Positions 1 through 20,000 of a stretch of DNA of 20,000 bases are shown here, piece after piece. This stretch comes from Chiloscyllium plagiosum (lineage: Eukaryota). The position numbers were made by a program, and so were the translations under genes. How positions within the stretch are numbered: the first letter of the stretch is position 1; every line of letters begins with the position of its first letter. The notes under the pieces were generated by a model. That model did no database searches and was not told the origin of the DNA. It saw nothing but the letters and a program-made list of their open reading frames with translations. Location of the stretch: NCBI RefSeq assembly GCF_004010195.1, contig NC_057755.1, positions 11,246,936 through 11,266,935 of the forward strand. Reading direction: 5' to 3'.

Positions 1-43
1 TCCTTCCGCTCTCCCTGGGTTCAACACCCCCGCGCACACCTTG

Positions 44-925
44 CTAGTTTAAATGCTCCTGAGCAGCTCGAGAAAATCTCTCGACCAGTGTATTCGTCCC
101 CTACCAAATCAGGTGCAAACAACCTTCTTAGACAAGTCACTTCTACTCCAGAAGAGATGCCAATGACACAAAACTCTGAACCCTTCTCCCCTGCACCATC
201 TCCTTCACTACTCCATCCTCGTATTTCCTCGCTCACTCTCTCGTAGCATTGGGAGGTATTTTCACACTGGAGAATTTCCTTCAAAATTTCTGACTAACTT
301 TCTATATTCTCCCTTTTGAATATCATTACTTTCCCTTTCTATGCCACTCGTTCCAATGTGTACATTGAGCTTCTGCTGGTCCCTCTTCCCTTTGAGTACA
401 CTGTGCACTCTCTCGGAGATATCCCTGATTCTGCCACCAGGGAGGCAACACACAATTCTGATTTCTCGCTGCAGAAAACGTCTGTCTGTAAATCTGACTG
501 AATATTCCCCAATCATAAGCGATGACTTGGAACTTGACATAACCTTTGTTACATTAGGGTCAGTCTCGGTACCAGAGACTTGGATTTTCGTACGACGTTC
601 CACCGAGAGTCCATCATCCGTTACATTTCCCAGAACAGAATACTTGTTTGAGATGGGGTTAGCCACAGAAGACTCTTGCACTACCTGCCTCCCTCTCCCA
701 CCTTTCCTGACTGCATCTGTCATTTTCTTCCTTCCTATAAAGTTCAATCATCAAACTCCCTCGCTCATTTAAATCCCTTTTATCTTGTAACTGCTACTCC
801 AAACGATTCATTCGATCTGATATGATTTGCAACTAAAGGCACATTCTGCAGACATAATCTTCAGTAACATGGGGATCTCCATCAACTCCCACATCCAAAA
901 GGGAGAGCACATCCCTCTTTGCTCC
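44..925 (-). mobile_element. Degenerate CR1-clade LINE ORF1 (N-terminal Cys motif/leucine zipper plus SGNH esterase domain)
   Basis: ORF 262..747 reads IGEYSVRFTDRRF...VCCLPGGRIRDISERV...VHIGTSGI, resembling CR1 ORF1 esterase blocks (GDS, CLPGA, HIGTND). 5' of it on the minus strand: CSPFWMWE...DYVCRMCL*LQIISDRMNRLE. It ends ...RFSRAAQEHLN* with TAG at 44-46. Stops and frameshifts are present. Confidence 0.85.
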
Positions 926-1685
926 TGTCCCGATGTGCAAATATGCAACAGAGTCAGGAAGCATCAGTCTGGGTTGTGGCTACCACGGGTGTATTTCTTC
1001 TTGTCCTCACAGGACTGTGTGTTCTCTTTGTGAAACACGAAACTTTGAAAAAGTATAAACGTGCAGTATAAACATTTGAAATTGACTGTTGTTCAAAAGA
1101 TTTTCTTTTCCTGAATTCACTCACTGTTTGGCAAGTGAAGAAAAAAAACTCAAACCAATTGATTAATGTCCCTGCAATTATGTATTTATTCAATGAAAGT
1201 TTGGAACCACATGTCAATAAATCTACTTAATAATTTTTACAAATTTCTGGTTTCAATTTGCAAATAGTCCACCGATTATATTTTCCTTTTGCCTCACGAT
1301 TCGAGCACGCTGATCATTTTAAAGTTTTGAAATATGCTCGTCGCTGAAATGCCATATTCAGTAATTTTGCTGAAAATTGGGAAGGTATTCAGTATTTTTT
1401 GTCTGTATGCTTGCCTTTCAGAATACTCTCTATGGATATAATCGAATCACTAAAAAAATGATTCAATCCATACTTGGTTCACAACGCCTGGATCATATAC
1501 AACTTAATAAAACACAAAATGAAAGCATTCCATATGTAACAGAAGTGCATTGTGACCGTTAATGGCAACATTGCAATCATCTCCTCAATTTCCAAAACAA
1601 TCAACAGCACAGAGGAAATTATTTCCATCATACAAATACAAGGATGGGGCTACTTCGGATGCAGTACCGTGCAAAAGACACATTT

Positions 1686-1888
1686 AGATTCATACAGATG
1701 TACAGCACCGAAACAGACCCTTCAGTCCAACCCGACCATTCCGACCAGTTATCCCAACCCAATCTAGTCCCACCTGCCAGCGCCCGGCCCATATCCCAAC
1801 AAATCCTTCCTATTCATATACCTATCCAAATGCCTGTTAAATGTTGCATTTGTACCAGTCTCCATCACATCCTCTGGCAGCTCATTTC
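1686..1888 (-). mobile_element. HER1/CR1 LINE 3' end fragment
   Basis: cagcaccgaaacagacccttcagtccaac...tccaaatgcctgttaaatgttgca...ctctggcagctcatt is visibly homologous to 3915-4100 and to the reverse complement of 19650-19795. Confidence 0.85.
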
Positions 1889-1924
1889 AAGCTCACGTTG
1901 TGAGAATATTTTGAAAAGAAACGT

Positions 1925-2005
1925 CCATCAGAGGAACAAGTGGAAACCGTTGAGCCCCTTGAGTTTGCTACTCCATTCAAAAGGATCATGGCGGATACTC
2001 TGACT
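1925..2005 (-). mobile_element. Short decayed CR1 3' tail
   Basis: gagccccttgagtttgctactccattcaaaaggatcatggcggat resembles the tail at 2745-2797 (cagcccctcgagcctactccgcc...gaccatagctgac). Confidence 0.55.
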
Positions 2006-2272
2006 CTATTCTCGCGCTCTCCACTTAATTGTGCTGTTGGATTGGTCACCCGAAAACAATGATTAGTTCTGATCACTGTGGGTAATGTATAATCATTGGA
2101 GATGTGGTCACGCAGCAATAACGCTTTTCCTTCCAACATCAGCAGCTCCAATCACAGATCTCACATTCAATTCTGTGAGATCCAAACCCAGTTTGATGAT
2201 CAATTCACTGAACGTTCATTTCGAGCTTATAATGCCCCTGGGTTTAACCAGGGCAGTTAGACAACGTGGATC

Positions 2273-2594
2273 GGGCGTCAGCACAGTGGCTCGGTGGTTA
2301 GCACTGATGCCTCACAGTACCTGGCACCACGGTTTGATTCCACCCTCGTGCCCCTGACTGTGTGGAGATTGTATTTACTCCCCACGTGTGCATGGACTTT
2401 CTCCAGGTGCGCTGGTTTGCTTCCACTGTCCAAAGGTATCCAGTTGGATTGGCTATGCTATTCCTGTTCAGGGTCCTGCAGGTTAGGTTGGTGAGCCATG
2501 GTTATGGACGGTCGGGAATTGGGATGTTTTTCAGAAGTTTGATGCAGACCTTAATGGACTGAATAACGTCTCTCTGTCCTGTACGAATTTCATG
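2273..2594 (+). mobile_element. Diverged full-length tRNA-derived V-SINE (HE1-like)
   Basis: A-box-like tggctcggtgg (2287-2297) and B-box-like ggtttgattcc (2331-2341). Core ctgactgtgtggagattgtatttactccccacgtgtgcatgg is homologous to 8193-8235. CR1-like tail atggactgaataacgtctctctgtcctgta. Confidence 0.85.
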
Positions 2595-2715
2595 CTTTAA
2601 ATAGTTTTTCAACTCAATAGACCACATAATGTCAAAAGGCTCGTCATTTCACGTGAATTTGAGGAAAAGGAGAACGATGGAGTGTGAGGGAGGAGTGGGG
2701 AAGTGACCTGGAACG

Positions 2716-3035
2716 AGAGAACGTAAGAGCAAGGAACAGCATGAGACCATTCAGCCCCTCGAGCCTACTCCGCCGATTTGATATGACCATAGCTGACCTC
2801 ATCTCTGTCTCACTCTCTTGCCTGCCATCCACAACCCTTTAAACTGTTAATTAAAAATGTCTTTGGCCTCAAACCTTTCTGTGACAGAGCATTCCTCAGG
2901 CTCTCCACTCTCTGGGTGAAGTCATTTCTCCCAATCTCAGTCTGCAATAACCTACCCCCCGTATCTTCAGACTGTGACTCCTCTGGTTCCAGACACATCG
3001 CCAGTGATCAGGAACATACTTCCTGCGTTTTGTTC
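2716..3035 (-). mobile_element. CR1 LINE ORF2 C-terminus plus 3' UTR fragment
   Basis: The minus strand encodes LQTEIGRNDFTQRVESLRNALSQK, matching the CR1 ORF2 motif RxxFFTQRVVxxWNxLP. A typical tail lies at 2716-2800. Confidence 0.8.
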
Positions 3036-3059
3036 ACAAATTATCCTCGGATCATTCTT

Positions 3060-3530
3060 CTCAATTCTCTCTCTGTCATCCATGTGGCTCCCTCTTGCTG
3101 TCTTTCCGTCTCTCTCTATCTCCATCTGCTTTACTTTCTCCTTCATTGTCTCTCTCTCTGTTTCTTTTTCTCTCGCTGTGGCGCTGTCTCACTCTCTTAC
3201 ATGCTCCCTCCATCGCAATCTGTTACTTTCCTTTTTCCCTCCCTTCGTCTTTCCCTCACCTCTCCATCCCATCTCCTCTGTGCTCACTCTTGCAATCCAT
3301 CTCTTCTTTCAACTTTCTTTCTTTCATTCATTCGCCTCCTCTGATGCATTCTCTCTATTGCTCTCTCTCTGTCTTACACACACGCACTCTCGTTCTTTTC
3401 CTCCCTTTCTGACTCTCACTCACTACCTCCCTTGTTCTCCCTATCTCTCTCACACACTGTCCTATTCGCTTGTTCTCTTTCTCCCTCTCTTTCTCTCAAT
3501 CACTCTCTCGCTCAATCACTCACGAAACAA
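3060..3530. repeat. CT-rich polypyrimidine low-complexity tract
   Basis: Degenerate (CT)n/(TCTC)n throughout; it generates spurious Ser/Leu-rich ORFs. Confidence 0.9.
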
Positions 3531-3769
3531 ACGTTGACATGTCATGTCAGCAACAGTTGTCGTTGTGAAGCCTTATTCAGAATCTGTCACAGAGTTTTCA
3601 GACTGTTCAGTGGTGTCAGGCCCGAAAGCAAGAACTTATAAAATTGGACAGCATCCTATTCTGGCTTCGAAATTTGTGTTGTCTGAAAACAGAAAAAAAA
3701 ACTGCATTTAATTAACCCCCCTGGATGTGGTGATATACCCCACAAACCTGTGTTTGTCGGAGAGGTGGT

Positions 3770-3905
3770 GTATCTGTGCGTCTGTGTATATTTCTGATTG
3801 GAGGTGAGTGAGAAATGCTCGACAACTCTGTGTGCTTGTGTGAGATTATGTGAATTCATATCAGTGTGTGAGTGCACAACTGAGTGTGTTTGTGTATGTG
3901 TGACA
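3770..3905. repeat. Degenerate TG-rich tract
   Basis: Repeated tgtgtg/gtgtgagtg runs. Confidence 0.6.
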
Positions 3906-4333
3906 CAGATGAGCAGCACAGAAACATACCTTTCAGTCCAACGTCTCCATGCCGATCAGATTTCCACAATTAATATAGTTCCATTGGCCAGCACTTGGCC
4001 CATATCCCTATAAACTCTTCCGATTCAAATATCCATTTTGATTCCTTTTAAATGTTGCAATTATACCAGCCTCCACCACTCCCTCTGGCAGCTCCTTCCA
4101 TAGACGTACCATCCTCTGTGAGACAAAGTTGCCCATTAAGTCCTTCTTAAATCATTCCCCTCCCTCGTTAAACGTATGCCCTCCAGTTCTGGACTGTCCC
4201 ACCCAAGGAAAATGACCTTGTCTATTTACTGTGTCCATGCCCTCATGATTTTATAAACCTCTATAAGGTCACATCTCCGCCTCTGACGCTACATGGTAAA
4301 AATGGAATTGACCAGCCAATTCAGTCTCTCCCT
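3905..4333 (-). mobile_element. 5'-truncated HER1/CR1 LINE (ORF2 end plus 3' UTR)
   Basis: ccctcatgattttataaacctctataaggtcac (minus: DLIEVYKIMR) is homologous to the reverse complement of 19440-19795. Confidence 0.88.
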
Positions 4334-5042
4334 GTGGGTAAACCACTCAGCCACTTTATATCTAACAGACAGAAAAGGTCACCCCGTTCTGTATTCTGTT
4401 AAATCTCAAGAGGCAAAAAACTATTCCAGGTTTCACTATTGAATCTAAATACTAACAATTTATTCATTGCGTTCAACAGAGAGCATTAAAACCACTACTA
4501 CTACCTACTCTTTTCTCTTAAACCTATATTTTATCTCTCACTCTACAATACTGGTCTGATTAAAAATAAACTAATGAAGATTTACAAAAATAAATCTCGT
4601 TTCTAAACCAGTCAGCTGTATAGATTCACCTTTGTAGAGTTTCCTCTGTATTTTCCGATGTCATCGTTTCTTTCAATTACTGCTGCACAACTTTCCTTCT
4701 GGACAGGTACGTTTCAGAGATCTATTTGGCTAGCAGTATGAACTTGCTGGTGCTCTTTGCAGTTGGTCCCATTAACTGTTGAGAATGTCCGGTTTTATAT
4801 CCCAAAACCTCGGATCAATTCATTGGTTTGTTGGCAAATTCAAATTTGATTGGAATTTGGTCTCTGCGGCATAATTTAAACCAGATGGCCAAATACGAAT
4901 TTACTTTTGTACCATGGCAACACAGCACCAGCTATTTGTGTCAACTAAATGTATTTTTTAGTGTTCAGCACACACAATGCTTTCAGTCCTTACCAGCTTC
5001 CTCTCTTTCTTAAATTTACAGTACACCCACATCTTCATAACA
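4333..5042 (-). repeat. 3' LTR of the minus-strand Gypsy element
   Basis: Begins TGTTATGAAG on the minus strand at 5042, next to the PPT. Shares blocks with 6910-7629 (aattcaaaYttgattggaattt, ataatttaaac, tttcttaaatKtacagtRcac, cttcataaca). The far end abuts the LINE at ~4333. Confidence 0.8.
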
Positions 5043-5052
5043 CCACTCCCTT
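5043..5052 (-). promoter_or_regulatory. Polypurine tract
   Basis: Minus strand aagggagtgg immediately precedes the LTR TG. Confidence 0.75.
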
Positions 5053-5214
5053 AAGAAAAAAATGAGCCACCATAATGAAAAGATGGCTTCATTTTTTCTT
5101 TATTCCTCAGCCACATTATCATGACATATTGTCTTTAGTCTATGTTCATGTTAACGTCTTCCCACATAAATATAACATTGAATAGATACCAACCTTATCT
5201 ATAATTTATTGCTA

Positions 5215-5750
5215 TTAAATCCATGACAATGCATCTGTAACTACCATCATATGACTGGCAGCATGTCCAATTTGTAAAGTCTGTGCTTTAAGACCCCAAA
5301 GAAATAGTCTCATATTCCTGTCTTTATGTAATTCCATGAATGTAAGTGGATTGTAATTGGTGTAAACAACCGTCTCTGATACATTGTTTGTCACAGACAC
5401 GTGAAAATGTTGTTAGGGCAGTACCAAGCTCCACAGTTCTCTTCTGTCGTGGAGTATTTCCTCTTGTGGATGTTGAGGTTCTTTCAAAAGTCACCAGTTG
5501 GCAGTTCAATCCCATCATCATCTTCCTGCAGTAGTACAGCTCAAAGTCCTATGCCATTTGCATCAATGTCAACCTCAAACGTTTTTGAAAATATTGGTGC
5601 AGCTGAAACTGGTGTGGTGTTTAATATTGCTTTGAAATGGTGGAATGTCTCCCGGCATTGCTCTGTCCATCAAAATCTTGTGTTCTTTTTCATCAAATTT
5701 GTTGATGGTGTAACTACACTTTTGCAGCTTGGAACATACTTCCAATAGAA
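5215..5750 (-). pseudogene. Gypsy pol remnant: RT connection plus RNase H, at the end of pol
   Basis: Minus translation includes WTEQCRETF...FEVDIDANGIGL*AVLLQEDD...RKYSTTEE...VVYTNYNPLTF...VTDALSWI*. Stops and frameshifts are present. Confidence 0.85.
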
Positions 5751-5859
5751 TCCGCTTCTTCCCAAGAATCGAAGCATCTCTTTCTTTGAGGTGGGTCGTG
5801 GAAATTCCTCGATCTCCTCTGCTTTCACGAGTTCAGTCTTGTTTAAATTTATTACCAGT

Positions 5860-6676
5860 TTTGCTTCTCATAGTCGTTCAAAGTTCCAATCTATCTTTTA
5901 AGCACGCCCCCATCTATCAAAATGACTATGCTTAATTCTTTCGAACTCAACATAAGTCTGACCTGACTCCTTCTTTATGTTTCTGAACCTCTGTCTAGCT
6001 GCTTCTGGTACCATTTAATAACCACTCAACACAACCTGTTTGACCTCTTAATAGTCTCTTGACCCCTCATCTGACAGTGCAGCAAATACCTCACTAGCTC
6101 TGCCTACCGGTTTTGTCACAACTGGCATTCCCAAGAAATTCTCGGACACCTCCATCTTCCTCGTCAGTTTTTCAAATGAACTACAGAAGGCTTCAGCATC
6201 TTTCTCATCAAAATCTGTCGGAGCTTTGACATATTTTTATGTGTCACTACCTTCTCTATTAATCTTCATCCTGTTGACTTGACATTGCTGAATAGGTCGC
6301 AACTTCTCAAGTTCAAATTCTCTCTCATCTTTTGCTCAGCCAAGAACAGTCTCTCTCTCTTTTGCCCGTCTCTCTCTTTTCTCTTTGCCGTTCTCTTTCT
6401 GTCTCCATCGCTCTTTCCTCTCTCTCTGTGTTTATCTTCGAACTCTATTTTCCTGAATTGCAATTTAAGTTTTCTACCACTACTGCATCTGTCTGTTTCT
6501 CTGATATACTTAAATATTTGAGCAATTCCTTTACAATTTCAGCTTTACTTTGATCCTCGGTTAAACTTCTTGGATATTTCTAAAATTATCGCCTTTTCCT
6601 TTCCTTCCAAACCTTCTTGGCAAATTTGAGAATCATCTTCAAATCCCTGAACTTATTTAGCAGTTTTAAGAGCCTT
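5860..6676 (-). pseudogene. Gypsy gag remnant
   Basis: A charged coiled-coil region is followed by SFEKL...VGRASEVFAALSDEGSRDY*EVKQVVLSGY*MVPEAARQRFRNIKKESGQTYVEFERIKHSHFDRW, resembling vertebrate Gypsy gag capsid. Confidence 0.85.
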
Positions 6677-6894
6677 CTCGCTTACTTTTAATTTAATCGA
6701 CCACAGGTTACCTAAATGACACTAATTGTCTCACCTACATTAGAATTGAAGATCTAGGAAACCAACCTGCAAGTGTTTAAATCTACGGGCTTTTTTCTCA
6801 CCCCAAATCTATTCTAATCTGTCCAAATCTCAGACTGGATTTTTCTAAACCTTTTCAAATCATTAATCCGAGACAAAACTGTCCAAACCTCAGC

Positions 6895-6906
6895 GACAAG
6901 TCCCCA
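6895..6906 (-). promoter_or_regulatory. Degenerate primer-binding site, tRNA-Pro-like
   Basis: Minus strand tggggacttgtc, 3 nt from the LTR end, matches TGGGGGCTCGTC at 10/12 positions. Confidence 0.6.
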
Positions 6907-6909
6907 AAC

Positions 6910-7629
6910 TGCTACAACACGGACAACCCCCCTGCTTAATTCAATCGAGTAACACTGGAAAGATTGATCCCATGCGGTAAACTGTGAACATTCGAGAGGC
7001 CAAAAAGTATTTAAAGTAAAAAAAAACAACCTTATTTGTTGAAGTATAACAGAGAATAATTAACTCACAACTATTTACAAACATTTACAAATCTTTGCTA
7101 TCAGCTATGTTTTACTTTCCCTTGTCCAACACTGGTCCGATAAAACCACCGATTAAGATTTAACAACATGTTCAAAGTTCAAAACCAGCCAGCTGTCCAA
7201 TCTTCCCTTCCTCTGTCGTTTCGTTTTCCAGGTCAGTTTCGATGTTCTTCTCTGTGCAAATTCCTTCTTGAGACAGGGACCACTCAGAGAGTTCTTACTA
7301 GTACCTTCCATCTGATGGCCTTTCGACAGTTCTCTCTCAACTGTTATCGTTTCCTTGGTCCTGTACCCCAATACCTCGGATTATGTCATTGGTTTTTATA
7401 TTTTCAATACACTAAATTCAAACTTGATTGGAATTTTTTGTTTGGGTATAATTTAAACTGTTTGGCATATTTCGAAATTGTTTTTGTTTTGTCTCCAGGC
7501 AACTCGCTACACGAGCTGCTGAACTTTAACATGACATTATATCTTGTTGAGAACGCTTGATGCTGTCAGGTAGTTTTTTTAGTTTTTAACTTTCTTAAAT
7601 GTACAGTGCACTTCGACACCTTCATAACA
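6910..7629 (-). repeat. 5' LTR of the minus-strand Gypsy element
   Basis: + strand termini are TGCTACAACAC...CTTCATAACA. Homologous to 4333-5042 and 12875-13326. Confidence 0.82.
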
Positions 7630-8179
7630 AAGCCATTTTCTCCTGCTCCCCTCTCTAGAACAATGAGCACATCCCTGAATACTGCTTGCAAAGCAGAACT
7701 CCAAGGCTGGACACTGCTGGAAGACATATTGCTTTATAACTGTTGTGCTTCTCATTGCTATATCTCTCCAAAAATTAAAATACACAGCACAATTGTTGAG
7801 CTCTTGATAAATCTCAGAGTCTAGAATGCTGACCATCTGATTAAACCAGGTTGCATGAAAGTCTCGCTGATTTTCTCTGCAACATTAATGGAAGTATAGC
7901 TGGATTTTCTTGAACCGTGTCATGCTGAACACAGTGTTAACAGAAGGAATGGGAATAAAATAGGATGATGGATGGAATGGGAGCAAAGCATACTATGCAG
8001 GATTGCTGACCTCAGTGCTGATTCTGGAAGGATGCCACCTTTTAATTCATTCATAGCACACGACCGTCATTGGCTGGGCCCAGCTTTTACTCCGTCTGCT
8101 CCGTCTCTAATTGACCCCCTTGAGAAGTTGAGGTATGCAATTTCCTTCAGCTGCTGCAGACCATGTGGGCCCACAATGC

Positions 8180-8459
8180 CCGCCTCCGGCGACTGACTGT
8201 GTGGAGTTTGCACATTCTCCCCATGTCTGCGTGGGTTTCCTCCGAGTGCTCCGGTTTCCTCCCACAATCCAAAGATGTGCAGGTCAGGTGAATTGGCCAT
8301 GCTAAATTGCCCATAGTGTTAGGTAAGGGATAAATGTAGGGGTATGGGTGGGTTGCGCTTCGGCGGGTCGGTGTGGACTTGTTGGGCCGAAGGGCCTGTA
8401 TCCACACTGTAAGTAATCTAATCTAATCTAATCTAATCTAATCTAATCTAATCTAATCT
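8180..8459 (+). mobile_element. Young 5'-truncated HE1 SINE with target-site duplication
   Basis: Clean V-SINE core (gactgtgtggagtttgcacattctccccatgtctgcgtgggtttcctcc), CR1-type tail and (TAATC)n. AATGC is duplicated at 8175-8179 and 8460-8464. Confidence 0.93.
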
Positions 8460-8462
8460 AAT
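8414..8462. repeat. (TAATC)9 microsatellite forming the SINE tail
   Basis: Nine perfect TAATC units plus TAAT. Confidence 0.97.
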
Positions 8463-8624
8463 GCGCTTAGTGAAGGAATTCCAGGATTTTGACCCAGTGA
8501 TAGTGAAGGAATAGCGACATACTCCTAAGACAAGATGATAAGGGACTTGGAGGGGATTGTTGTGAGTCAGTGGTCAGTCAGTGGAGCAGGGTAGGAATAA
8601 TGGAGCAAGTCCCCTCGTGAATCC

Positions 8625-8740
8625 AAATGCTGCATCTCCCACAATCGCCAGTTTGCGTTGTTGATATCGAACCCGAGACAGATTAAGCTGACTTCTCAAG
8701 TTGACGTAAAGGATCCCACATTTAAGCCAAGCAGGGATTT
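8625..8740 (+). mobile_element. Possible ancient Deu-domain SINE fragment
   Basis: ttctcaagttgacgtaaaggatccca resembles the Deu-domain motif ctctcaggtggacgtaaaagatccca (recalled); heavily diverged. Confidence 0.4.
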
Positions 8741-8894
8741 GGACTTAGGCAACGCTAATGTTCTGACTTATATTTCACTGCCATATGACTTCAATCCTTA
8801 CTGGTAACCCTTCGCAACCCTCTGGAATGAGCCAAATAGGCACTCAGACTTGGAACACAGAGCAAAGCAGTATGTATAAAGGGGCAACTCTGCA

Positions 8895-9552
8895 ACTCTG
8901 TGTGTGTGTCTAAACAGGGGTGTGTGTGTGCTCATTAGCGTATGTGTGTGTGCACAGTTGTGTGCATGTATACCAGGGTGTGAGTCTATGGATGGAGGCA
9001 CGTGTGTACAGAGCTGTGTGTCTGTATGTACAGGAGTGTATGTATGTGTGTACAGGAATGTGTGTGTGTGTGCATGCAATGGCGTTTCAGTGCGTGTGTG
9101 CGTGCACATGCACAAGGGGTTGTTGTGTGTGTACAGGGGAAAATGTGTGTGCACAGTATTGTATGTCTGTGTGTGAACATCTGTGTGTTTGTGTGCAGGG
9201 GTGCACATATGTGTATATATATATGGCTTTGTTTGTGTGTATACAGGGAAGTGCGTGTGTTTACAGGGGCATGAGTGTATCGGAGTGTCTCTGTGTGTGT
9301 ATGGTGGCATGTGTGTGCATTGGTGTAAATCTATGTGCGTATAGGGGAAGGTGTGTGGGTACAGAAGTGTGTATATACAGGGATGTACGCGCGTGTGTAT
9401 CGGGATATGTTGTGTACAGGAACGTTTGTGTGTCTGTGGGTGTGTGTGTGTTTGTACAAGGGTGTATTTGTGTGTGTAAAAGGATATGTGTGTGTACATG
9501 GATGTGTGTGTGTCTGTGTGCGTGTGTACAGGGACGTGTGGATATAGGGGTG
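8895..9552. repeat. TG-rich degenerate minisatellite with recurring GTGTACAGG motif
   Basis: (TG)n runs are punctuated every ~20-40 bp by tacagg/cagggg variants. Confidence 0.9.
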
Positions 9553-9554
9553 TA

Positions 9555-9890
9555 TTTGCCTTTTGCAAACTCGACGTCTAGAGAAAGAAGCAATGATTTT
9601 TCTCGAGGTTTGAATGGAGCAGCTCAGTGCCATGGAACTCCCAACTCCATGCCTGTTTCCCCAGGATGGGGAGATTGAGACATGCATTGTGTGAACCTGG
9701 AATTTCATCCATTGAATTTGGGATGCTGCAATACTAACCAAATCTTGCTGGTCTCCCAGTAGAAAACATCATCTTTTACGTGAGAGTTTTCGACTGACAC
9801 GTGCCAAGATCAAGGAGAAGGTGCTCAGGAACTCACGACAGCTCAGGGCCGTGAGCAGTCCGCAGTCAGGAAAACCCACTGCCTCAATTC
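9555..9890 (+). mobile_element. Degenerate L1/Tx1-like LINE ORF2 C-terminal fragment
   Basis: Across frameshifts it reads FFSRFEWSSSV...LFP...LLVSQ...ESFRLTRAKIKEKVLRNSRQLRA...QSGKPTA, resembling a Tx1-type end I recall as WFLSRFIPSSSV...GLFPG...RNLLVFQ...CRLAHSKVQDYVLRD...QWGKTTV. Confidence 0.6.
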
Positions 9891-10007
9891 GATCTTCCAT
9901 TTTGGAGTGAATGCTGGACCTTCGAGCATCCTCCCAGCTCCGACTAGAATGTATATATTTATTAGCACACTCAGCTAATGTTCCATTTGGATAGAAGCAC
10001 ATGACAA

Positions 10008-10875
10008 GCCATAGGAAATAGGGACAGGAGTTGGCTACTCGGCCCCTTCAGCCTGTCAAGCCTGATGCAACATTCCTTATGTCCACATTCCTGCCCATTC
10101 CCCTTTACTCTCGATCCCCCGACTAATCAAGAATCTGTCTGTCTCAGCCTTTAATATACACAAGGACTCTCCATCCTCATCTCTCTGTGGTAAGGAGTTC
10201 CAAAATATCACACTCCTCTGAGAGGAGAAATTCATCCCCATCTCAGTATTATATTGGTGACCAGAGCGTGCCCTCAGCTCCCAGACTCTCCCATGGGGAG
10301 ACATACACTCTCAGCATTTACCATCGAGCTCCTTCACAATCCGATATATTTCAATGAGGCACATCTCATTCTTACAAACTCCAGTGAGGTGAGTTCCATG
10401 TTTAGCCTTTGATCATAAAACAATCCCTCCATACCAGAAATCATCGTTGTGAACCTTCTGCGAACTGCCTCCAATTAAATCATATATTTCATGAAATAAG
10501 GGAAAGCTGCCCGCAGAGCTCCAGTTGTGGTCTCACCAGCATCTTGTACTGTAGCAGTGAGACTTCTCTCCTCTTCGACTCCAACACCCTTGAAGTAAGG
10601 CCTAATATTTCATGACCCCGTTCCTGAATTGCTGTTGCCCCTGTGCGCTAGCTTTCTGTGGTTCGTGCACAAGTTCCCCCAAGACCCTGTGTGTTGTGTC
10701 GCACTGCTGCTTTTCTTCGTTTCAGCAATAGTTTTCTTTCGTTCTCCTGTCCAAAATGACCTTCACACTTGTCCACTTTATACTCCGTTTACCTACTCTT
10801 TGCCCACTCATTCAACTGATTGATATCTCTCCGTAAGCTGCCTGTACCCCTTTCACAATCTGCCTCGCTACCTTT
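10008..10875 (-). mobile_element. CR1 LINE ORF2 3' part plus tail (resumes at ~11555-11612)
   Basis: ORF 10077..10304 reads TEMGMNFSSQRSVIFWNSLPQR...LKAETDRFLISRGI. The continuation gtcatctgcaaa at ~11565 reads FADD on the minus strand. Confidence 0.85.
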
Positions 10876-11553
10876 CTCTCTCAATGCAAATCTGCAGGTT
10901 GAGTCAACAGTAAGGAATATAAATGCAATGAAGGCATGTATTTTGCGAGGACTTAAATATTAAAGCAGGGATATACCTATGCGGCTCCTTGAGAGTCTGG
11001 TCAGAGGATATTTGGAGTATTGTGCGCAGTTTTGGGCCTATATCTCAGGAAGGGTGTACTGGCCCTGAAGCGTGTTCAGTGAAGTTTCATGAGAATGGTC
11101 CCATGAATGAAAAACTTAACAAATGAAGAAAGTTTGAGGGCTCTGGGTCCATACTCGATGGAAAATAGAAGGATGTGGGAGTGGGAGGGGGAATCTAATT
11201 GAACCATATAGAATAGTCCATGGTGTGGACTGAGTGGATGTTGGGAAGTTGTTTCCATTTTTTGGAGGGATTTGGATCGAGGGCACAGCCTTCGAGTAAA
11301 GGAAAGACATTTTAAATGGAGATAAGGAGTAACATGTTCTTCCAGAGAGTGGTGAATCTCCTGTGAAGGCTGTGGAGACAAGGTCTTTGAGTATATTTAA
11401 AATTGAAATAGATAGGTTCTTGAGTATCAAGGGGATCAACAGTTATGGGGTAAAACGGGAGAATGGGTTTCAGAAACTTACGAGCCATGATTGAATGGCA
11501 ACGCAGACTCAATGGGCTGAATGGCCGAATTTCTGATCCTATGTTTTATGCTC
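10876..11553 (+). mobile_element. CR1 LINE ORF2 3' part plus tail, nested in the opposite orientation
   Basis: ctggtcagaggatatttggagtattgtgcgcagttttgggcc (LVRGYLEYCAQFWA), ttccagagagtggtgaatctc (FQRVVNL), and tail atgggctgaatggccgaatttctgatcctatg. Confidence 0.88.
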
Positions 11554-11654
11554 TGTTTGTGTAAGTCATCTGCAAATTGGGCTCCAGTGCATTTACTTCC
11601 ATCATTAAAGTGAAAATACTCAAGTAGATATTTTGGGAAGTTTTTGTATTATGT

Positions 11655-11815
11655 GCCATGCATGGCCATTGCTTAAGTTCAGTTGGATGGACAGCTGGCT
11701 TGTATTACAGAGTATTGCTAGTTGGAGAGGTTTAAATCCCAGCATGGCTGAGGTGACCTCGAAGGACTCTCTGCACTCTCACCCCTTGCCTGAGGTGTGG
11801 TGTCCCTCAGGTTAC
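11655..11815 (+). mobile_element. Diverged tRNA-derived SINE fragment
   Basis: A-box-like agttcagttgg, B-box-like ggtttaaatccc, and a 3' inverted repeat cctgagg-N9-cctcagg (11789-11811). Confidence 0.55.
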
Positions 11816-11961
11816 TATTTTTACTATTTAGCAACTCAGTATTAACATTAAAACATATTCTATCACAACCGTGTTCTGACACAGTCTTGTTTTTCCCAAA
11901 TTGTAAAAGATCACTTTGAAAATGTTGCAATCCTCATGTCCCTGTGGAGATTTCCAGAGAG

Positions 11962-11968
11962 TATAAAT
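11962..11968 (+). promoter_or_regulatory. Putative TATA box of the GPCR gene
   Basis: TATAAAT starts 78 nt upstream of ATG 12040, in non-repeat sequence. Confidence 0.6.
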
Positions 11969-12039
11969 AATGGGTTTCATTAACTCCGGAGCTGAATTAA
12001 GTTGGATTGTTCATTGAGGCAGAGGAGTGCATTCGGAAA

Positions 12040-12106
12040 ATGCACAGAATAATTCTGATTGCCAACAAAATATATTACGTGATCCTGGCTGTCATTGGTA
12101 TTCCGG
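12040..12106 (+). CDS. GPR139/GPR142-like GPCR, coding exon 1 (N-terminus and start of TM1)
   Basis: ATG has A at -3 and an upstream in-frame TAA (11998-12000). Encodes MHRIILIANKIYYVILAVIGIP plus one G, followed by a consensus donor G|GTAAGT at 12107. Phase 1 matches exon 2. Confidence 0.88.
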
Positions 12107-12244
12107 GTAAGTAGGTGTACACAGAAACTGAGTAAATATGCTGCCATGTTTTTACAGTGGGACTGATACTGTGCACAAACCTTGCTGCAGATACTGCATT
12201 GCTTTTATCGTTTGACGAGTTTTGAGAAAAATTGCAGCTGATGT

Positions 12245-12395
12245 TGAGGTTCTTGATGTAGGTTTGCTTGCTGAGCTGGAAGGTTCATTTTCTGATGTTT
12301 CATCACATTACGAGGTTACACCTTCAGGGAGCCTCCGGATGAAGCTGCGCTGGTGTTTCCTGCTTTCTATGTATATGTTGGGTTCCCTTGGGTTT
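12245..12395 (-). mobile_element. Penelope-like element terminal fragment with decayed hammerhead core
   Basis: Minus strand ctgaagg-tgtaacctcgtaatgtgat-gaaacatc (12294-12327), followed by gaaccttccagctcagcaagcaaacctacatc. Confidence 0.6.
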
Positions 12396-12459
12396 CCAAG
12401 GTTTTTGATTTTTTGATTTATTTCCTTTATTGACTGTTTGATTTCAGTCTCGACCCTCA

Positions 12460-12530
12460 TCTCAACCCTCCTTCTCCTTTGATGCTGCTTGACCTGCCCT
12501 GTTTTTGTCCAGCTCCACACTTTATCAACT
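12460..12530 (+). mobile_element. Single arm of a Penelope-type foldback repeat
   Basis: ctccttctcctttgatgctgcttgacctgccctgtttttgtccagc is homologous to 19933-19976. Confidence 0.65.
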
Positions 12531-12640
12531 TAATGTAGTTTGCGAGATTGTGTTTAGTACAATAATGCATCGTCGAGAACCACTGATGCCCCGTCAGCCT
12601 GAAACAATGTATTCATAACGAAGATAGCTCTGTTAGTTAT

Positions 12641-12860
12641 CAGAAAGAAAAATTGCTGGAGAAACTCAGTAAGTCCAGCAGCAAACGTGGAGAGAAAGCA
12701 TAGTCAACGTCTCGAGTACTTTCTTCAGAACTGACTCTGTTCAACCTGTGAAACATTAACCCTGCTTTCTCTCTCCGCGAGTACTGCCAGACCTGCTGAG
12801 CTTCTCCAGAAATTTCTGTTTATTGCATCAGATCTTCAGCATCAGCACTTATTTGTGATA
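12641..12860. mobile_element. Diverged Penelope-type palindromic element
   Basis: Arms at ~12646-12714 and ~12749-12818 are imperfect reverse complements (ctggagaaactcag / ctgagcttctccag; gagagaaagca / tgctttctctc). Confidence 0.75.
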
Positions 12861-12874
12861 TTCTCTTATAAATC

Positions 12875-13326
12875 TGTTATGACACGGAATAAACCCCTCT
12901 GCTAATTTAAACCCGACTCACAGAGAAACTCACCTCACGCTGTAATCTGTTGAACTTCGAGAGACAAAGAACTATTCTAGAGGTCACAATTAAAAGTAAA
13001 AAAATCAACAATTTCATTCTTCACGTCCAAAAGAGAACTAAGGACAACTACTTACAGCGCATTGCGCTTAAACCTATCTTTTGCCTCCTGCGCTGCAATA
13101 CCAGGTAAATTACAAAACTCTTATGATTTTCAAAAATGCTTAATACAAATTCGATTGGATTTTGGTATCTGGCGCGTAATTGAAATGCATTGGCTGAGTT
13201 TGGATTTGCTATTGTATCTTGGCAACTGCGCTGCATTATTGGCTTTACTGTGAAATTATGCATTTTAAATTCTCTCAGCACAAGCTACGCTTCCTATATC
13301 CGTTCCAGATCCAGTATCTTATAATA
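12875..13326 (-). repeat. Solo LTR, internally shortened, related to the LTRs at 4333-5042 and 6910-7629
   Basis: Starts TGTTATGACAC and ends tcttataata. Shares aaacccctctgctaattt, cttaaacctat, gattggattttggt and tggcaac blocks. No TSD seen. Confidence 0.75.
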
Positions 13327-13354
13327 GTACAGTAAACCCGGTATATGCCACCTT

Positions 13355-14028
13355 TATAGGAGCAGGGAGGTGATGTTGGTACTGTGCACGACCTTGATGA
13401 AGCCACAGCTGGAATACAATGTGCAGTTCTGGTCCCTGCATTATCGGAAGGGTGGGATTGCACTGGAGAGGTTAGCGGTCAGAGGCGATTCACCACAATG
13501 TTGTCTGATATGGAGCGTTTCAACGATGGAGAGAATCTGAATAAATTTGGGTTGTTTACGTTTGACCAGAGAAGGCTAAGCTGGAACTGATAGATGTGTT
13601 TCCCATTCTGAGATTATGGGGATGCTGATGGAGTTTAGATGAATGAGAGGGTTCTGATTGAAATTTACAGAATGCTGAGCGGCCTTGATAGAGTGGACGT
13701 CGAGAAGATGCTTCCAACAGGAGAAGAGATGATTATCTGAGTGCATAGCTTCAGAGCGAACGGACGACTCTTTAAAGAAGAAGAGAAATTGCTTCAACCA
13801 GATGAAAGCAACTCCGTGGGGTGCATTACGCAGAAAGCTGTGGAGACCAAGACACTGATTGTAGGTAGGGCAGACGTAAGATAGGCTCTTAATCAGTGAA
13901 TACATCAAATGATCCAGGGAGAAGCCAAGAGAATGTGATTGAGATACATGTCAGCTGCGATCTTGGAGATGACTCAATAGGCCGAATGGCCTAAATCATC
14001 TTCTTTTCCGTATGGTCTTATGGTCTTA
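13355..14028 (+). mobile_element. CR1 LINE ORF2 3' fragments (probably two pieces joined near 13615) plus tail
   Basis: aagccacagctggaatacaatgtgcagttctggtcc (KPQLEYNVQFWS), ctgattgaaatttacagaatgctg (LIEIYRML), and tail ggccgaatggcc...tatggtcttatggtcttat. Confidence 0.8.
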
Positions 14029-14100
14029 TTGTGCTTTCACATTTTGTGTCATATATAAATTTCTAAATTAAAGGAATATCCAAAATAACAGCATTGGAAC

Positions 14101-14668
14101 CATTAAGGAACCAGGCCAGACCCCTCCTCAAGACATTTTAAGAGGTTAGAGTAGATCCTAACTTTTTCGTATTTTAAAGGCAGCTGCGAGGTGGATATTC
14201 CAGGAGTGATGCAACCACTCGATCAAACCTCTCAGCTTTCAGCAATTTATTTAAACACTACACTAAAACACGAAAAAAGTGGAATTTAAAGTAAATTCAC
14301 TATTGGAAAAACTAACTAACGTGATACAGGAATTTAATAAAGGAGGTGTGCCGATCCAGTCACAACCCATACACGCACCCCTTGGCAAAAAGATTAATTG
14401 AAACACAGATGCCAGAGGGAGCAACATCCAGAGATTTGTCAGAGGGAAAGTCAGTCAGGAATCGTCTGCAGAAGCTTGCAATCTTCCTGAACTCCAGCAG
14501 CTTGTGAGTGTCACAACAAAACCAATCTGGGATTAACCTGAACTGGGGGAGCTGGCCACTCCCCCGCCATTGTTATATCAGGCTCTTTCCAGACTCCTTG
14601 GCACCTCGACCTCTCGTAAAAACAACCCAAGCGCTAAGGAAGCTTGTTAAAATGACAGCACCATCAAA
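14101..14668. repeat. Probable solo LTR of a different family
   Basis: accaggccagacccc...gtggatattccaggagtgatgca...ggagctggccactccc resembles a shark LTR as I recall it; termini are decayed. Confidence 0.45.
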
Positions 14669-15197
14669 GTACTCTATTGTGGTGATCTCCTGTGACAAAC
14701 CTCAATCAGAAAACTCGTCACCACAAGTTCATTTTCTCAGTCAGTTTTGTTTCCATGTTCCTACTGCCCTTTCTTTTATTGAATGACGGGAAAGTGATTC
14801 TGGAATATCTATTTGATACTACCTGCCTCCCTCTGCTCATTTAACATCCCCCTTATGACTGCATACCAAACGTTTGTCTCCCCATCCTATCTGCTCTGGG
14901 ATGTGATCGCTCATCCAGCCCCTCACCCAAGTTTTGCTGTGGTGAGGGGGAGTTCAGGGGATGGGAAGGGTGTTTCGACACAGGATTTGTATTCACGCGC
15001 ATCATCGCTCCACCTCATCCTCTTCTCTTGCCACCACCCACCTGCACAGATCAAACCGAGATCCACTCATACGCTGTTCCCTCCCATGACGGAGGTTCCT
15101 GCTCAGGATTTGTTTCCTTGCATACTCCCAATTTGAATTCTGTCCTACGCTAGGTGAGAGCACCATCCAATCAGTTCAAGCAAGCTTATCAACCTAC

Positions 15198-15450
15198 CTC
15201 TCTGTGTCCCAACTGCCTCTCTCTCTCTCTGACTCTGTTTTTCTCTCTCTCCTTTTCTCACTCTGTCTCTCTCTCCGTCTGTGTCTATCTCTCTCTCTCT
15301 GCAACTCTGTCTCTCATAGTCTCTCTCAGTTTCTCTCTCTGTCTCTCTGTCACGCACTCTCTCTCTCTTCCTCCCTCTCTCTGTCTCTCTCCCTCTCTGT
15401 CTTTTGTTCTCTGTCTCACTGTCTTCCTGTCTGTCTGTCTCTTTCTGAGA
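15198..15450. repeat. (CT)n/(CTGT)n low-complexity tract
   Basis: Near-continuous degenerate CT repeats. Confidence 0.93.
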
Positions 15451-15675
15451 CAGATGTCGGGTGACTCCCTACCCTTATTACGATGTCCAGCAGTAAGTGA
15501 ACTAAGTCTTATCTCATTAACTCTCGGTTTGTCAGATCGGGAATTAGACATGTCTGAGATGAGCCAAAATCTTAAATGTGATGTTTAATTAATTTAAAGC
15601 CACGTGTGTTTTGATACCAAAGGGAATAAGTGACAGTATGTTTGGTTCAAACCTGTTCTCTTCTCTCCCCTGCAG

Positions 15676-16020
15676 TTAATTTAGTGGCTCTCTTGATCTT
15701 GTCTCAGGGAAGGTGTGGCCTGTCCTCCTGCACCACTTGCTACCTGGTGGCCATGGCAGCATCGGATCTGATGGTTCTTATTACAGAGGTTGTACTGAGG
15801 AACATCAATGGCTATTACTTCCCATTATCCTTCTTAGATTTGACTCCATTATGCAGTATAATCTATGTCTTATCAACAGCAGCCACCTCCTGCTCTGTTT
15901 GGTTCACGGTCACTTTCAGCTTTGATCGATTTGTCATTATCTGTTGCCGGAGACTGAAACTTCAATATTGCACAAAGAGAAATGCAGTTGTAATTCTGTC
16001 AACAACCTGCACCCTGATCT
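15676..16020 (+). CDS. GPR139/GPR142-like GPCR, coding exon 2 (TM1 end to TM4), truncated by assembly gap
   Basis: Acceptor ctgttctcttctctcccctgcAG at 15674-15675. Open frame (V)NLVALLILSQGRCGLSSCTTCYLVAMAASDLMVL...TPLC...SVWFTVTFSFDRFVIICC...YCTKRNAVVIL contains TM1 Asn, TM2 Asp, TM3 Cys and a DRF motif. Confidence 0.93.
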
Positions 16021-16520
16021 NNNNNNNNNNNNNNNNNNNNNNNNNNNNNNNNNNNNNNNNNNNNNNNNNNNNNNNNNNNNNNNNNNNNNNNNNNNNNNNN
16101 NNNNNNNNNNNNNNNNNNNNNNNNNNNNNNNNNNNNNNNNNNNNNNNNNNNNNNNNNNNNNNNNNNNNNNNNNNNNNNNNNNNNNNNNNNNNNNNNNNNN
16201 NNNNNNNNNNNNNNNNNNNNNNNNNNNNNNNNNNNNNNNNNNNNNNNNNNNNNNNNNNNNNNNNNNNNNNNNNNNNNNNNNNNNNNNNNNNNNNNNNNNN
16301 NNNNNNNNNNNNNNNNNNNNNNNNNNNNNNNNNNNNNNNNNNNNNNNNNNNNNNNNNNNNNNNNNNNNNNNNNNNNNNNNNNNNNNNNNNNNNNNNNNNN
16401 NNNNNNNNNNNNNNNNNNNNNNNNNNNNNNNNNNNNNNNNNNNNNNNNNNNNNNNNNNNNNNNNNNNNNNNNNNNNNNNNNNNNNNNNNNNNNNNNNNNN
16501 NNNNNNNNNNNNNNNNNNNN
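16021..16520. other. Assembly gap (500 N)
   Basis: Exactly 500 Ns; probably a placeholder size. Confidence 1.
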
Positions 16521-19418
16521 AATGGAGGTGTTGCAGGTGGCACATGGGATACCACTAGGGAGTCACTTAGGAGTGAGAAAAACTCAAGGTAAAAGACAAA
16601 AACATTTTTACTGACCTGGACTGCACACGGATGTAACTGAACTTTGCTAGACATGTCGTACATGTCAGGTAATTGGAAAACCACAGTCAGTAATAAAACC
16701 CGCACCTTTAATACCTATTCCTGCATTTGAGGAACCTTTTTGCAAGAGCCTGCATTGATTTTGAAGGTCCCCCAACCCTAAAACAAAAAGTGGGAATCAG
16801 TATTTGTTAACAATAATGGATGTGTCCACGAGATTTCCAGAGGCCATTCCATGACGCAATATCACAGCTAAAAGGATTGCAGAGAAATTACTCAAAGTTT
16901 TCACAAGGTGCCGACTACTGACAGAAATACAAGAATCAAACTCCTCATTATTCAAAAAAGCTTACGAACAAAACTATTTAAATCTACTACGTACCATCCA
17001 GAATCGCAGGGAACGCTAGAAATGTGGCGTCAGGGATTGAGGATCATGTTGAGGGCTTATAATCAGGATTATCCAGATGATTAGGATAAGGGAGTTCCAT
17101 TTGTGCTTTTCGTGATCAGAGCTGCGCAAATCCGTCGACCAAATACAGCCCATTTGAATTAGTTTATGGACATGAAGTGAGAGAACCACTAAAATTGATG
17201 AAGGAGAAATTGTTAGGTCAGAATTCAGGGACCACATATGGGGACAATGTGTCAAATCTTAGGGAATGATTAAATAGAGCTGGGGAGTTGGCTACACAGC
17301 ATTTATAAGTATCACAGCGTATAACAAAACAGGAAGTGGATAAGAAATCAAAAACTCGCAGTTTAGCGATCGAAGATGAGGTATTAGTGTGACTTCCAGT
17401 AATAGGTGAACCTTGAAAAGCAAGTTTTAGTGGACCTTGTCAAGTCGAAAGGAAATTGAGTGAGGCGAACGATTTGATAGGGACTCCAGACAGGAAGGAA
17501 TCTCACAGAGTGTGTCACGTGAATATGCTCAAAAGGGATTGTAACAGGGAAGGGAAGCAAAAGGAGAAGGTGCTACTGTTTAGAGTGGAGAACCAAGCGG
17601 AGAGGATTCTGAATTGGACATTCCTCAGATTAAATCGGACAATGAGGACGTTGCAAAAATTGGGATAAATTGTTGAGGTACATTCCACAAGAAAATCGAA
17701 ATGACCTGAAGGAATTATTTCAGTCACCTGGGGAGATATGTGGAATTAAGCTGGGACTTACTAACCTAATTGTGCATGATGTAGATATTGGAGATGCTGT
17801 TCTGATCATACAACATCCTTAAGGCATAACCCTCTCTGGTTGGCACAGGTTCAGAAGGAGATTGAACACGCGCTCAATAATCAAAGTGAGTTACAGTGAC
17901 TGGAGCTCACCCACAGTAATGGTGCCAAAACCAGATGGTACCCAACAGTTATGTGTGGACTTTTGCAAAGTCAATGCAGTTACAAAGACTGATGCATATC
18001 CGATTCTGCGTTTGGAAGGCTGTGTTGAGAAGGTGGGACAAGCAGCTTATATTTCTGAGTTGGTTTTGCTCAGAGGATACTGGCGGGTACCTTTGTCTGA
18101 AAGAGGGAAGGCAATTTCAGCTTTCGTAACGCTGAGTGGACTGTAACAGCTTAAAGTCATGCCGTTTGGTATGGAAAATGCGCCGGCCACACTGCAGAGA
18201 TGAAGCAACACAGTCGCTGATGGATTAGCCAACTGTGTCTTATATATCAGCGACCTGGCCATTTTTAATCACGCATGGAAGAAACATTTCCAACACTTAT
18301 CCGACTTGTTTGATCAATGTTGGAAGTCAGGCTTGGGTGATAAACATGGCCTAAATCGAATTTGTGAAGGCCCAGGGTCACCTCCCTGGGCCATGTTATT
18401 GGACATGGGCAAATGGCCCCATGGGATGCCAAAACAAAGATAACTGTAGAGTGTCCCATACTATTGACAAAACAAGCAGGACGACAGTTCCTGGGATTGA
18501 GTGGATTTTATCACATTTGGAAATTTGATAAATTTTAAAAAGTTTAAAATTAGCAGTCTGTAACACGCATGTACGTTACATTGACTATAAGCATGCGAAC
18601 ATGCACAACTACAATCGGTTACAGTCTACGGTACTCCCACCAACAAAGGCCTCCATTTCTCATTCAAGTCTCGACAACGCGTCGGCAATCATGTTTTCCC
18701 GCCCTGGTTACAAATTTTAAACTTTTATCAAATTTGTACCAAGTTTTCGCTCCACTCACTGAATTGCTAAAGAAAGTAAAGAGGTTTTCTTGGATAGCAG
18801 ACTGTCAGAAGGCATTTGATGGTCTGAAAGCTGTGTTCACCCTCGCCCCGGTATTAACCACATTTAATTCCACAAAGCCGTTCAAGGTGGCTATCAATGC
18901 GAGTGATGGGGGTGTTGGTGCTGTGCTTTGCAAGAAGACAAGAAAGTAGAAATACATATTGGGTATTTTTCCCGGAAATTGAACGTTCATCGACAGAAAT
19001 ATTCGACGGTGGAGAAAGAGACTTTGAGCTTGGCGTTGGCATGACAACATTTCAGTGTTTATATTACCAGTAACGGATCTGAATAATCATAACGCACTGA
19101 TCACAACCCATTGAAGTTTGGGGAGAAACTTAAGGATAAAAATGCCAGATTGTTTCAACGAAGCCTCTTGTTACAGCCATCCAATTTGAATAATTGTGCA
19201 TGTGGAAGGACAGGAGAACGTGACTGCCGACACACTGTCCAGGCTGGAATGGGAAATGGAGGCGTTTGGTGGTGGGGAGTACCACAGACTGAAATAGATT
19301 GTAGTTGTGTATGTTTGCAAATTTACAGTCAATGTAACGTACGTGTGTGTTACAAAGTACAAACAAGCTTTTTCAGGGGTTATACAATGAAACCGTCTTT
19401 GGATATTGATCGTTCATT
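16521..19418 (+). mobile_element. Degenerate Gmr1-like Gypsy pol (integrase, RT, RNase H) plus 3' UTR
   Basis: Integrase ~16525-17550: AHGIPLGSHLGVRKT...TCRTCQ, YLLTIMDVSTRFPEAIP, YHPESQGTLE, FSGP...HVNMLK. RT ~17860-18510: WSSPTVMVPKPDG, LCVDFCKVN, MPFGMENAPATLQR, YISD. RNase H ~18880-19250: FKVAINASDGGVGAVL, KYSTVEKETL, TDHNPL, ADTLSR. Confidence 0.93.
18521..18735 (-). repeat. Inverted copy of the element's own pol end/3' UTR, flanked by AT-rich inverted repeats
   Basis: 18559-18699 is the reverse complement of 19213-19354 at about 80% identity by eye. Flanks 18521-18551 and 18713-18735 are inverted repeats. Confidence 0.88.
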
Positions 19419-19800
19419 TGGAGGATCTGGGCTATCGGGAGAGGCTGAACAGGCTGGGGCTGTTTTCCCTGGAGCTTCGGAGGCTGAGGGGTGACATTAT
19501 AGAGGTTTACAAAATCATGAGGGGCATGGATAGGATAAATAGGCAAAGTCTTTTCCCTGGGGTGGGGGAGTCCAGAACTAGAGGGGCATGGGTAAAGGGT
19601 GAGAGGGGACCTAAAGGGCAGCTTTTTCACCCAGAGGGTGGTGCGTGTATGGAATGAGCTGCCAGAGGGTGTGGTGGAGGCTGGTACAATTGCAACATGT
19701 AAGTGGCATTTGGATGGGTATATGAATAGGAAGGGTTTGGAGGGATATGGACGGGGTGGGACCGAAGTTGGACCGAAGGGTCTGTTTTCGTGCTGTAGGG
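19419..19800 (+). mobile_element. 5'-truncated HER1/CR1 LINE
   Basis: LEDLGYRERLNRLGLFSLELRRLRGDIIEVYKIMRG and FFTQRVVRVWNELPEGVVEAGT; tail gttggaccgaagggtctgttttcgtgctgta. Confidence 0.93.
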
Positions 19801-19827
19801 AGAAAAGCGTTGCTGGACCCAAAGAAG

Positions 19828-19994
19828 CAGGGCTGAAAATGTGTTGCTGGAAAAGCGCAGCAGGTCAGGCAGCAGCCAATGAACAGGAGAATCGACGTTC
19901 CTGAAGAAGGGCTTATGCCCGAAACGTCGATTCTCCTGTTCCCTGGATGCTGCCTGACCTGCTGCGCTTTTCCAGCAACACATTTTCAGCTCTG
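19828..19994. mobile_element. Young Penelope-type foldback element
   Basis: Arms 19832-19899 and 19923-19990 are complementary at 65 of 68 positions. Confidence 0.85.
19901..19928 (+). ncRNA. Minimal hammerhead ribozyme-like core
   Basis: CUGAAGA-A-GGGC-UUAU-GCCC-GAAAC-GUC has the conserved CUGANGA and GAAA boxes around a 4-bp stem II. Helix I is weak or absent. Confidence 0.6.
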
Positions 19995-20000
19995 ATCTCC

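Follow-up and report, generated by a model that had tools for sequence, protein, structure and literature searches.

A predicted two-exon receptor gene of Chiloscyllium plagiosum, a member of a large chondrichthyan family whose variation fits a chemical-sensor repertoire

A stretch of 20,000 nucleotides from the genome of Chiloscyllium plagiosum (hereafter the window; contig NC_057755.1, positions 11,246,936 to 11,266,935) carries at positions 12040-16020 a two-exon gene for a class A (rhodopsin-like) G protein-coupled receptor (GPCR), which runs into an assembly gap. An initial annotation made from the letters alone had proposed that a 67-nt exon 1 with a GTAAGT donor is spliced in phase 1 to an acceptor at 15675, thereby moving the N-terminus of the protein far upstream. 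Homology and the family-wide position of the junction confirm that this gene is real, with the splicing itself predicted. Its features in the window are as follows.

11962..11967, + strand: candidate TATA box (TATAAA), 78 nt before the ATG and the sole TATAAA in 11600-12040; a promoter function is presumed.
12040..12106, + strand: coding exon 1, 67 nt, encoding a short N-terminus and the first part of transmembrane helix 1 (TM1) up to the GxP motif.
12107..15675, + strand: phase-1 GT-AG intron, 3569 nt, containing repeat remnants.
15676..16020, + strand: visible part of coding exon 2, encoding the remainder of TM1, TM2, TM3 (with C3.25 and the DRF motif), intracellular loop 2 (ICL2) and most of TM4.
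16021..16520, no strand: assembly gap, exactly 500 N long; the window does not contain the remainder of the receptor gene.

The start codon at 12040 has an A at −3 and is preceded by an in-frame stop 14 codons upstream. The donor GTAAGT begins at 12107 and the acceptor CAG ends at 15675, with pyrimidines at 18 of the 20 bases preceding it. Joined, the two exons give 137 codons with zero stops, open to the run of N, as the initial annotation had stated. Exon 1 alone matches residues 1-22 of the Stegostoma tigrinum (zebra shark) proteins P0003 and P0004 with 77% and 82% identity, respectively (tblastn E values of 7e-6 and 1e-6), and is therefore not a chance reading frame. The joined 137-residue product is 82% identical to both proteins, and exon 2 taken separately is 83% identical to P0003. 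Seven AG sites between 15600 and 15720 were tested, four of which keep the frame open; the best pyrimidine tract belongs to the one placing the exon start at 15676, and the only other strong acceptor, at 15685, would delete the TM1 Asn.

A hidden Markov model (HMM) of the family aligns to the window with 188.6 bits, its positions 1-23 falling on exon 1, a match that is weak alone (E 0.39). An alignment anchored on the TM1 Asn covers 142 of the 148 named homologues, and the family N-terminus is present in 102; Met1 lies exactly 23 residues before this Asn in 60 of the 102, the same spacing as in the window copy. Another 40 homologues were sorted as lacking the family N-terminus, being mostly models with another first exon, together with a few that hold a variant of it. 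In this group only 3 of 40 are identical to the window peptide at residue 22, but 34 of 40 are at residue 23, whose codon the intron splits, indicating that the position of the junction is a family trait. Database models P0001, P0002 and P0039 each join the front half of a paralogue to the paralogue next to it, which points to closely packed tandem arrays and to annotation that misses exon 1.

Membership of class A is clear from exon 2 alone, which scores 35 bits against Pfam 7tm_1, above the curated cutoff of 30.5, and from the presence of N1.50, D2.50, C3.25 and the D/E-R-Y/F motif in the window peptide. The visible copy spans TM1-4 only; a structure model of the relative P0013 has seven TM helices and helix 8 (predicted local distance difference test score, pLDDT, 85). 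In a fold search this model reaches a template-modelling score (TM-score) of about 0.7 to many class A structures, resembling many class A peptide receptors about equally, with GPR139 at rank 5 and not singled out. By these sequence criteria the locus is a class A receptor and a distant cousin of GPR139/142.

All 38 matches in a first homologue search carry chondrichthyan names, as do all 120 listed in a second, and across both searches nearly all are called 'probable GPR139'. The gene is consequently less hidden than the initial annotation had it, as NCBI already models many members of the family under that name. Ten out of ten divergent members that were checked are chondrichthyan (nine directly, one via a cluster member) and come from sharks, rays, skates and chimaera. 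The horn shark Heterodontus francisci accounts for at least 81 of the 148 named clusters, 29 of them on one 74-Mb contig, a count that is a lower bound among the matches listed. A full HMMER scan yielded 138 representatives at 50% identity with E values up to 1e-30; the 2611 matches of the second homologue search, at E 0.001, take in any GPCR and were not used as family size.

These results support the view that the window gene is one paralogue of a large chondrichthyan class A expansion. The initial annotation had envisaged a lineage-expanded chondrichthyan family and would have been contradicted by a single-copy gene nested among GPR139/142 orthologues. The family is multi-copy and the expansion is supported, while the lineage proves wider, as a conserved counterpart exists in amphibians and a sturgeon. 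The expansion appears to be undescribed, although many of its members have been machine-annotated under 'probable GPR139': literature searches, whose coverage left out subscription papers and the supplement of PMC11979771, returned no description of the shark family, and the passages covered of PMC10620051 do not mention it.

Phylogenetic trees were assessed by the Shimodaira-Hasegawa-like approximate likelihood ratio test (SH-aLRT), with an independent quick tree of 31 rows alongside. The window copy groups with P0003 and P0004 (SH-aLRT 100) and then with the horn-shark protein P0005 (94). At a deeper level the tree contains three vertebrate subtypes, with amphioxus outside: a coelacanth/teleost subtype (SH-aLRT 100), a lamprey/anchovy/caecilian subtype (98.9), and a subtype uniting sturgeon and amphibian sequences with all chondrichthyan members in one clade (99.9). 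Monophyly of the chondrichthyan members apart from the amphibian/sturgeon clade is recovered by FastTree (0.914) and not by IQ-TREE, where two catshark sequences are basal. Pairwise scores of P0003, the full-length protein closest to the window copy, amount to 144, 138 and 129 bits against coelacanth, salamander and teleost orphans, respectively, 61-73 bits against amphioxus proteins and 41 bits against human GPR139.

The amphibian counterpart was found as 21 rows from 21 different species, and the amphibian and sturgeon gene is apparently single-copy; the search concerned missed coelacanth and teleost proteins from its own query and thus cannot show absence in amniotes or teleosts. Proteins P0248, P0295, P0298, P0322-P0342 and P0349 represent this orphan receptor with its almost invariant pocket, a conserved and apparently unstudied receptor in its own right.

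Variation was quantified as the mean pairwise difference within three sets of positions: 33 in the pocket, chosen beforehand, 60 others in the outer half of the TM helices and 83 in the inner half. For the shark paralogues (97 sequences) these values are 0.51, 0.36 and 0.19, respectively (p 0.004). The amphibian orthologues (22 sequences) give 0.04, 0.18 and 0.21, the pocket here being the less variable part (p 0.0003). The face turned to the G protein is thus equally conserved in the shark paralogues (0.19) and the amphibian orthologues (0.21). Among 22 paralogues on one horn-shark contig the values are 0.43, 0.27 and 0.13 (p 0.0025), and their core-pocket strings are distinct in 22 of 22. 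The signal is maximal at zero shift and fades when the set of positions slides by one or two along the helices.

A large, clustered family with a variable pocket and a conserved signalling face fits a chemical-sensor repertoire, and we consider it rather likely that the chondrichthyan paralogues work as one. Each receptor would bind a small, soluble molecule that resembles an amino acid or a short peptide in a pocket among TM2, 3, 5, 6 and 7, and would signal via a shared G protein through the conserved DRF motif, ICL2 and the TM5-6 face. Under this model an ancestral single-ligand receptor, which amphibians and sturgeon still possess as a single invariant gene, would have been duplicated many times in cartilaginous fishes, its pocket being retuned and its G-protein face kept, so that the resulting repertoire may sense varied ligands, probably external or microbial. 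Small soluble ligands are our best guess because relatives answer to aromatic amino acids and short peptides (PMC7318219; PMC8557429). The chemosensory or nutrient-sensing role raised in the initial annotation gains indirect support from the pocket pattern.

Several points weigh against a sensor repertoire. Variable pockets are also compatible with relaxed constraint and with immune or somatosensory roles. The 33 pocket positions come from a generic class A list and were mapped by sequence, and the p values are optimistic, since paralogues are not independent samples. True GPR139/142 sequences did not appear among the matches of the word-index and HMMER homologue searches, and the tree was built without them, so that their distance rests on pairwise bit scores. 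Finally, the top 50 genes of a catshark brain and olfactory library contain no GPCR (PMC11979771), a weak objection in that V2Rs are also missing from that list.

The window gene itself is an ordinary, incomplete member, and the interest of the locus rests on the family. Past the point at which the window copy breaks off, its relatives continue for a median of 188 more residues (166-225), and in only 1 of 101 is this part short enough for 500 nt; 58% of the coding sequence of this copy is unseen, and the family HMM finds no match after the gap. The far side is occupied by the following features.

16521..19250, + strand: decayed coding region of a long terminal repeat (LTR) retrotransposon, not part of the gene, beginning mid-integrase right at the gap.
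16522-16611, + strand: Integrase_H2C2 match (E 4e-4, under the cutoff).
17823-18143, + strand: RVT_1 match, weak (E 0.22).
18554-19041, + strand: RT_RNaseH matches (E 9e-12 and 8e-7).

As about 188 missing codons exceed 500 nt and an LTR element starts at the far edge, either the gap really spans more than 500 nt or the gene has been cut. Judged from its sequence, the window copy is probably a working family member, keeping 35 of the 37 columns that are conserved at 95% or more. That it is instead a dead or dying duplicate, with a frame that is disrupted within the gap or interrupted there by the retrotransposon, independently of what the family does, is doubtful but deserves to be taken seriously. 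Besides the length discrepancy and the element at the far edge, such a fate would account for 20 departures at columns more than 80% conserved, several of them in ICL1 and ICL2. This number exceeds that of 98 of the 101 relatives: only 3 of 101 reach 20, the median is 5, and P0003 and P0004 have 13. The end branch of the window copy is also longer (0.18 versus 0.035), and a rate test falls below 0.05 in 3 of 10 non-independent comparisons, making the copy borderline faster. Moreover, in the close relative P0004, a model of 210 residues, the likeness to the family ends about 5 residues past the same point. Against loss of function, however, there is no stop or frameshift in the 137 codons, both splice sites and the TATA box are intact, the changes are mostly conservative and the near-invariant columns are largely retained. 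A gap of exactly 500 N is, furthermore, a usual scaffolding placeholder.

Several other repeats were noted in the window. In the decayed element at 16521-19250 (+ strand) the integrase zinc finger precedes the reverse transcriptase (RT) and RNase H, an order that we take to recall Gmr1-type Gypsy elements, and a stretch of about 170 nt in its RT/RNase H region (18555-18700 against 19200-19400) is an inverted near-copy of the 3' end of the element, as judged by eye and from the list of open reading frames (ORFs). A second, more decayed LTR-element remnant at about 5100-6700 (− strand) shows gag-like and RT-like fragments in the ORF list; a Pfam scan of two stretches within it gave no match. Positions 8169-8462 hold a repeat resembling a short interspersed nuclear element (SINE) with a perfect (TAATC)9.8 tail, presumably a shark SINE, and a long degenerate GT-rich tandem tract lies at 8880-9545, 2.5 kb upstream of the gene. 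A search for a 26-bp satellite upstream of the gene found none in 1-15000 or in 9700-12100. A short repeat is present at 19800-20000 as two neighbouring inverted copies; relatives of this repeat occur in the intron near 12650-12830, and the N-terminus of database model P0007 is in part a translation of it.

At the level of the family, the proposed sensor repertoire has to be weighed against internal surveillance, in which the receptors would sit on leukocytes, barrier epithelia or nociceptors and detect peptides of microbes or of the host, in the manner of mammalian MRGPRs and formyl-peptide receptors. The molecular mechanism would be the same and the cells different, so that the same pocket pattern would be expected. 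Cartilaginous fishes are reported to have neither MAS1 nor the receptors related to it (PMC8455134), which would leave that role vacant, and expression of shark OR, TAAR and V2R genes is often seen in places other than the nose (PMC11979771). The nearest characterized relatives, on the other hand, are neuronal amino-acid and neuropeptide receptors (PMC7318219; PMC8557429), and we regard surveillance as unlikely, though with an appreciable chance of being correct.

A largely neutral expansion, in which tandem duplication and drift in repeat-rich regions relaxed a redundant pocket and no tuned repertoire arose, appears improbable. Many database models are truncated, fused or oddly started, and the locus sits among decayed repeats, as this account would have it. 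Drift is, however, difficult to reconcile with a G-protein face as conserved as that of the amphibian gene (0.19 versus 0.21) alongside pocket variation exceeding that of lipid-facing positions, or with a family spanning sharks, rays and chimaera.

A shark orthologue of GPR139 or GPR142 responding to L-Trp and L-Phe, which the database name, the two exons as in GPR139 (PMC7318219) and the rank of human GPR139 as best PDB sequence match might suggest, is highly improbable and was rejected for GPR139 (the comparison was made without a GPR142 sequence), because about 35 of 111 residues of the window peptide (some 32%, by hand count on an alignment) are identical to human GPR139 as against 70% for zebrafish GPR139 (PMC7318219), the ligand pocket is not conserved, a TM3 Cys is present that the aligned human sequence lacks, amphioxus and coelacanth orphans outscore human GPR139 (41 bits with P0003) against the family, and the family is multi-copy. 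The initial annotation was accordingly right to judge the sequence too divergent for a GPR139 orthologue.

Should the sensor repertoire be real, cartilaginous fishes may possess one more chemoreceptor family, a larger one, that arose independently from an orphan related to GPR139/142, and the amphibian/sturgeon gene would preserve the ancestral ligand; we advance this tentatively. Published accounts stress the relative paucity of GPCRs and olfactory receptors in these fishes (PMC8455134; PMC11979771). Catshark counts are about 8 OR and 32 V2R. The chondrichthyan receptor count would be altered by a family that has at least 81 distinct members in a single shark and varies mainly in the pocket. 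Its members, concealed in annotation by the name 'probable GPR139', would be candidates for explaining the detection of many chemicals by sharks that have few known receptors, or for a surveillance system like that of the MRGPRs. If the proposal is true, the single-copy amphibian/sturgeon gene offers a direct route to deorphanizing the family. Because the amphibian orthologue is conserved, Xenopus is a species in which the question can be tested.

Among known systems, GPR139 is the best PDB sequence match (7vug) whether the query is the window, the family profile or any of the outgroups tested. It shares with the shark family two coding exons, the YY..L..G.P.N motif in TM1, the lack of a Pro at the NPxxY position and W6.48. 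The GPR139 intron presumably interrupts the same TM1 codon as the family junction. The shark family differs in having Cys residues in TM3 (97 of 97) and in extracellular loop 2 (95 of 97) that find no counterpart in the aligned human sequence, in the loss of P6.50 from most members, in its very short N-terminus and in its many copies. GPR139 and GPR142 are class A orphans activated by L-Trp and L-Phe, and the pocket of GPR139 for these ligands comprises E3.32 (E108), F3.33 (F109), H5.43, W6.48, R6.51 and N7.39 (PMC7318219). The window copy has S3.32 and T3.33 in place of E108 and F109, and the shark family retains W6.48 alone of the six (94 of 97). As this pocket is not conserved, the GPR139 ligand cannot be assumed for the family, and the aromatic-amino-acid ligand class that had been suggested from the likeness to GPR139 is not transferable.

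The amphibian/sturgeon orphan, also named 'probable GPR139' (P0248 of Pleurodeles, P0325 of Xenopus tropicalis, P0349 of Acipenser), has ICL2 and ICL3 motifs in common with the shark family, to which its mean identity is 27%. Unlike the shark family it is found as one row per species, has an almost invariant pocket, keeps P6.50 and carries S1.50 and N2.50, Ser and Asn being present in all amphibian sequences that cover those positions. Rinne et al. (2019; PMC6504862) placed an orphan, GPR210, with three subtypes, beside GPR139/142 in coelacanth, gar and fishes; the present tree likewise has three vertebrate subtypes. The words shark and cartilag- are absent from that paper, and its passage on GPR210 names no amphibian member and no expansion. 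The shark family probably falls within the orphan group named GPR210. That group is defined by Ensembl identifiers (ENSLACP00000014196, ENSLACP00000019189 and ENSLACP00000015589), and a coelacanth orphan, P0256, was found in the present analysis.

Protostome receptors for W/Y/F-amide peptides (MIP, proctolin, FMRFamide and myosuppressin) are sister to deuterostome GPR139/142 (PMC8557429). They are the next Atlas look-alikes after the clusters of the shark family itself, and represent an independent expansion in the same superfamily, as receptors for endogenous neuropeptides; in the tree they would lie outside the chordate clade, provided that the outgroup assignment holds. No OR or TAAR match appeared in the Pfam, PDB or Atlas results for the shark family. 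ORs, TAARs, V1Rs, MRGPRs and formyl-peptide receptors nevertheless offer what we take to be a parallel in mode of evolution, combining, as the shark family does, clustered birth-and-death expansion, a short N-terminus and a variable pocket on a conserved scaffold. From these expanded sensor families the shark receptors are set apart by their separate origin and by a coding region that is split by an intron.

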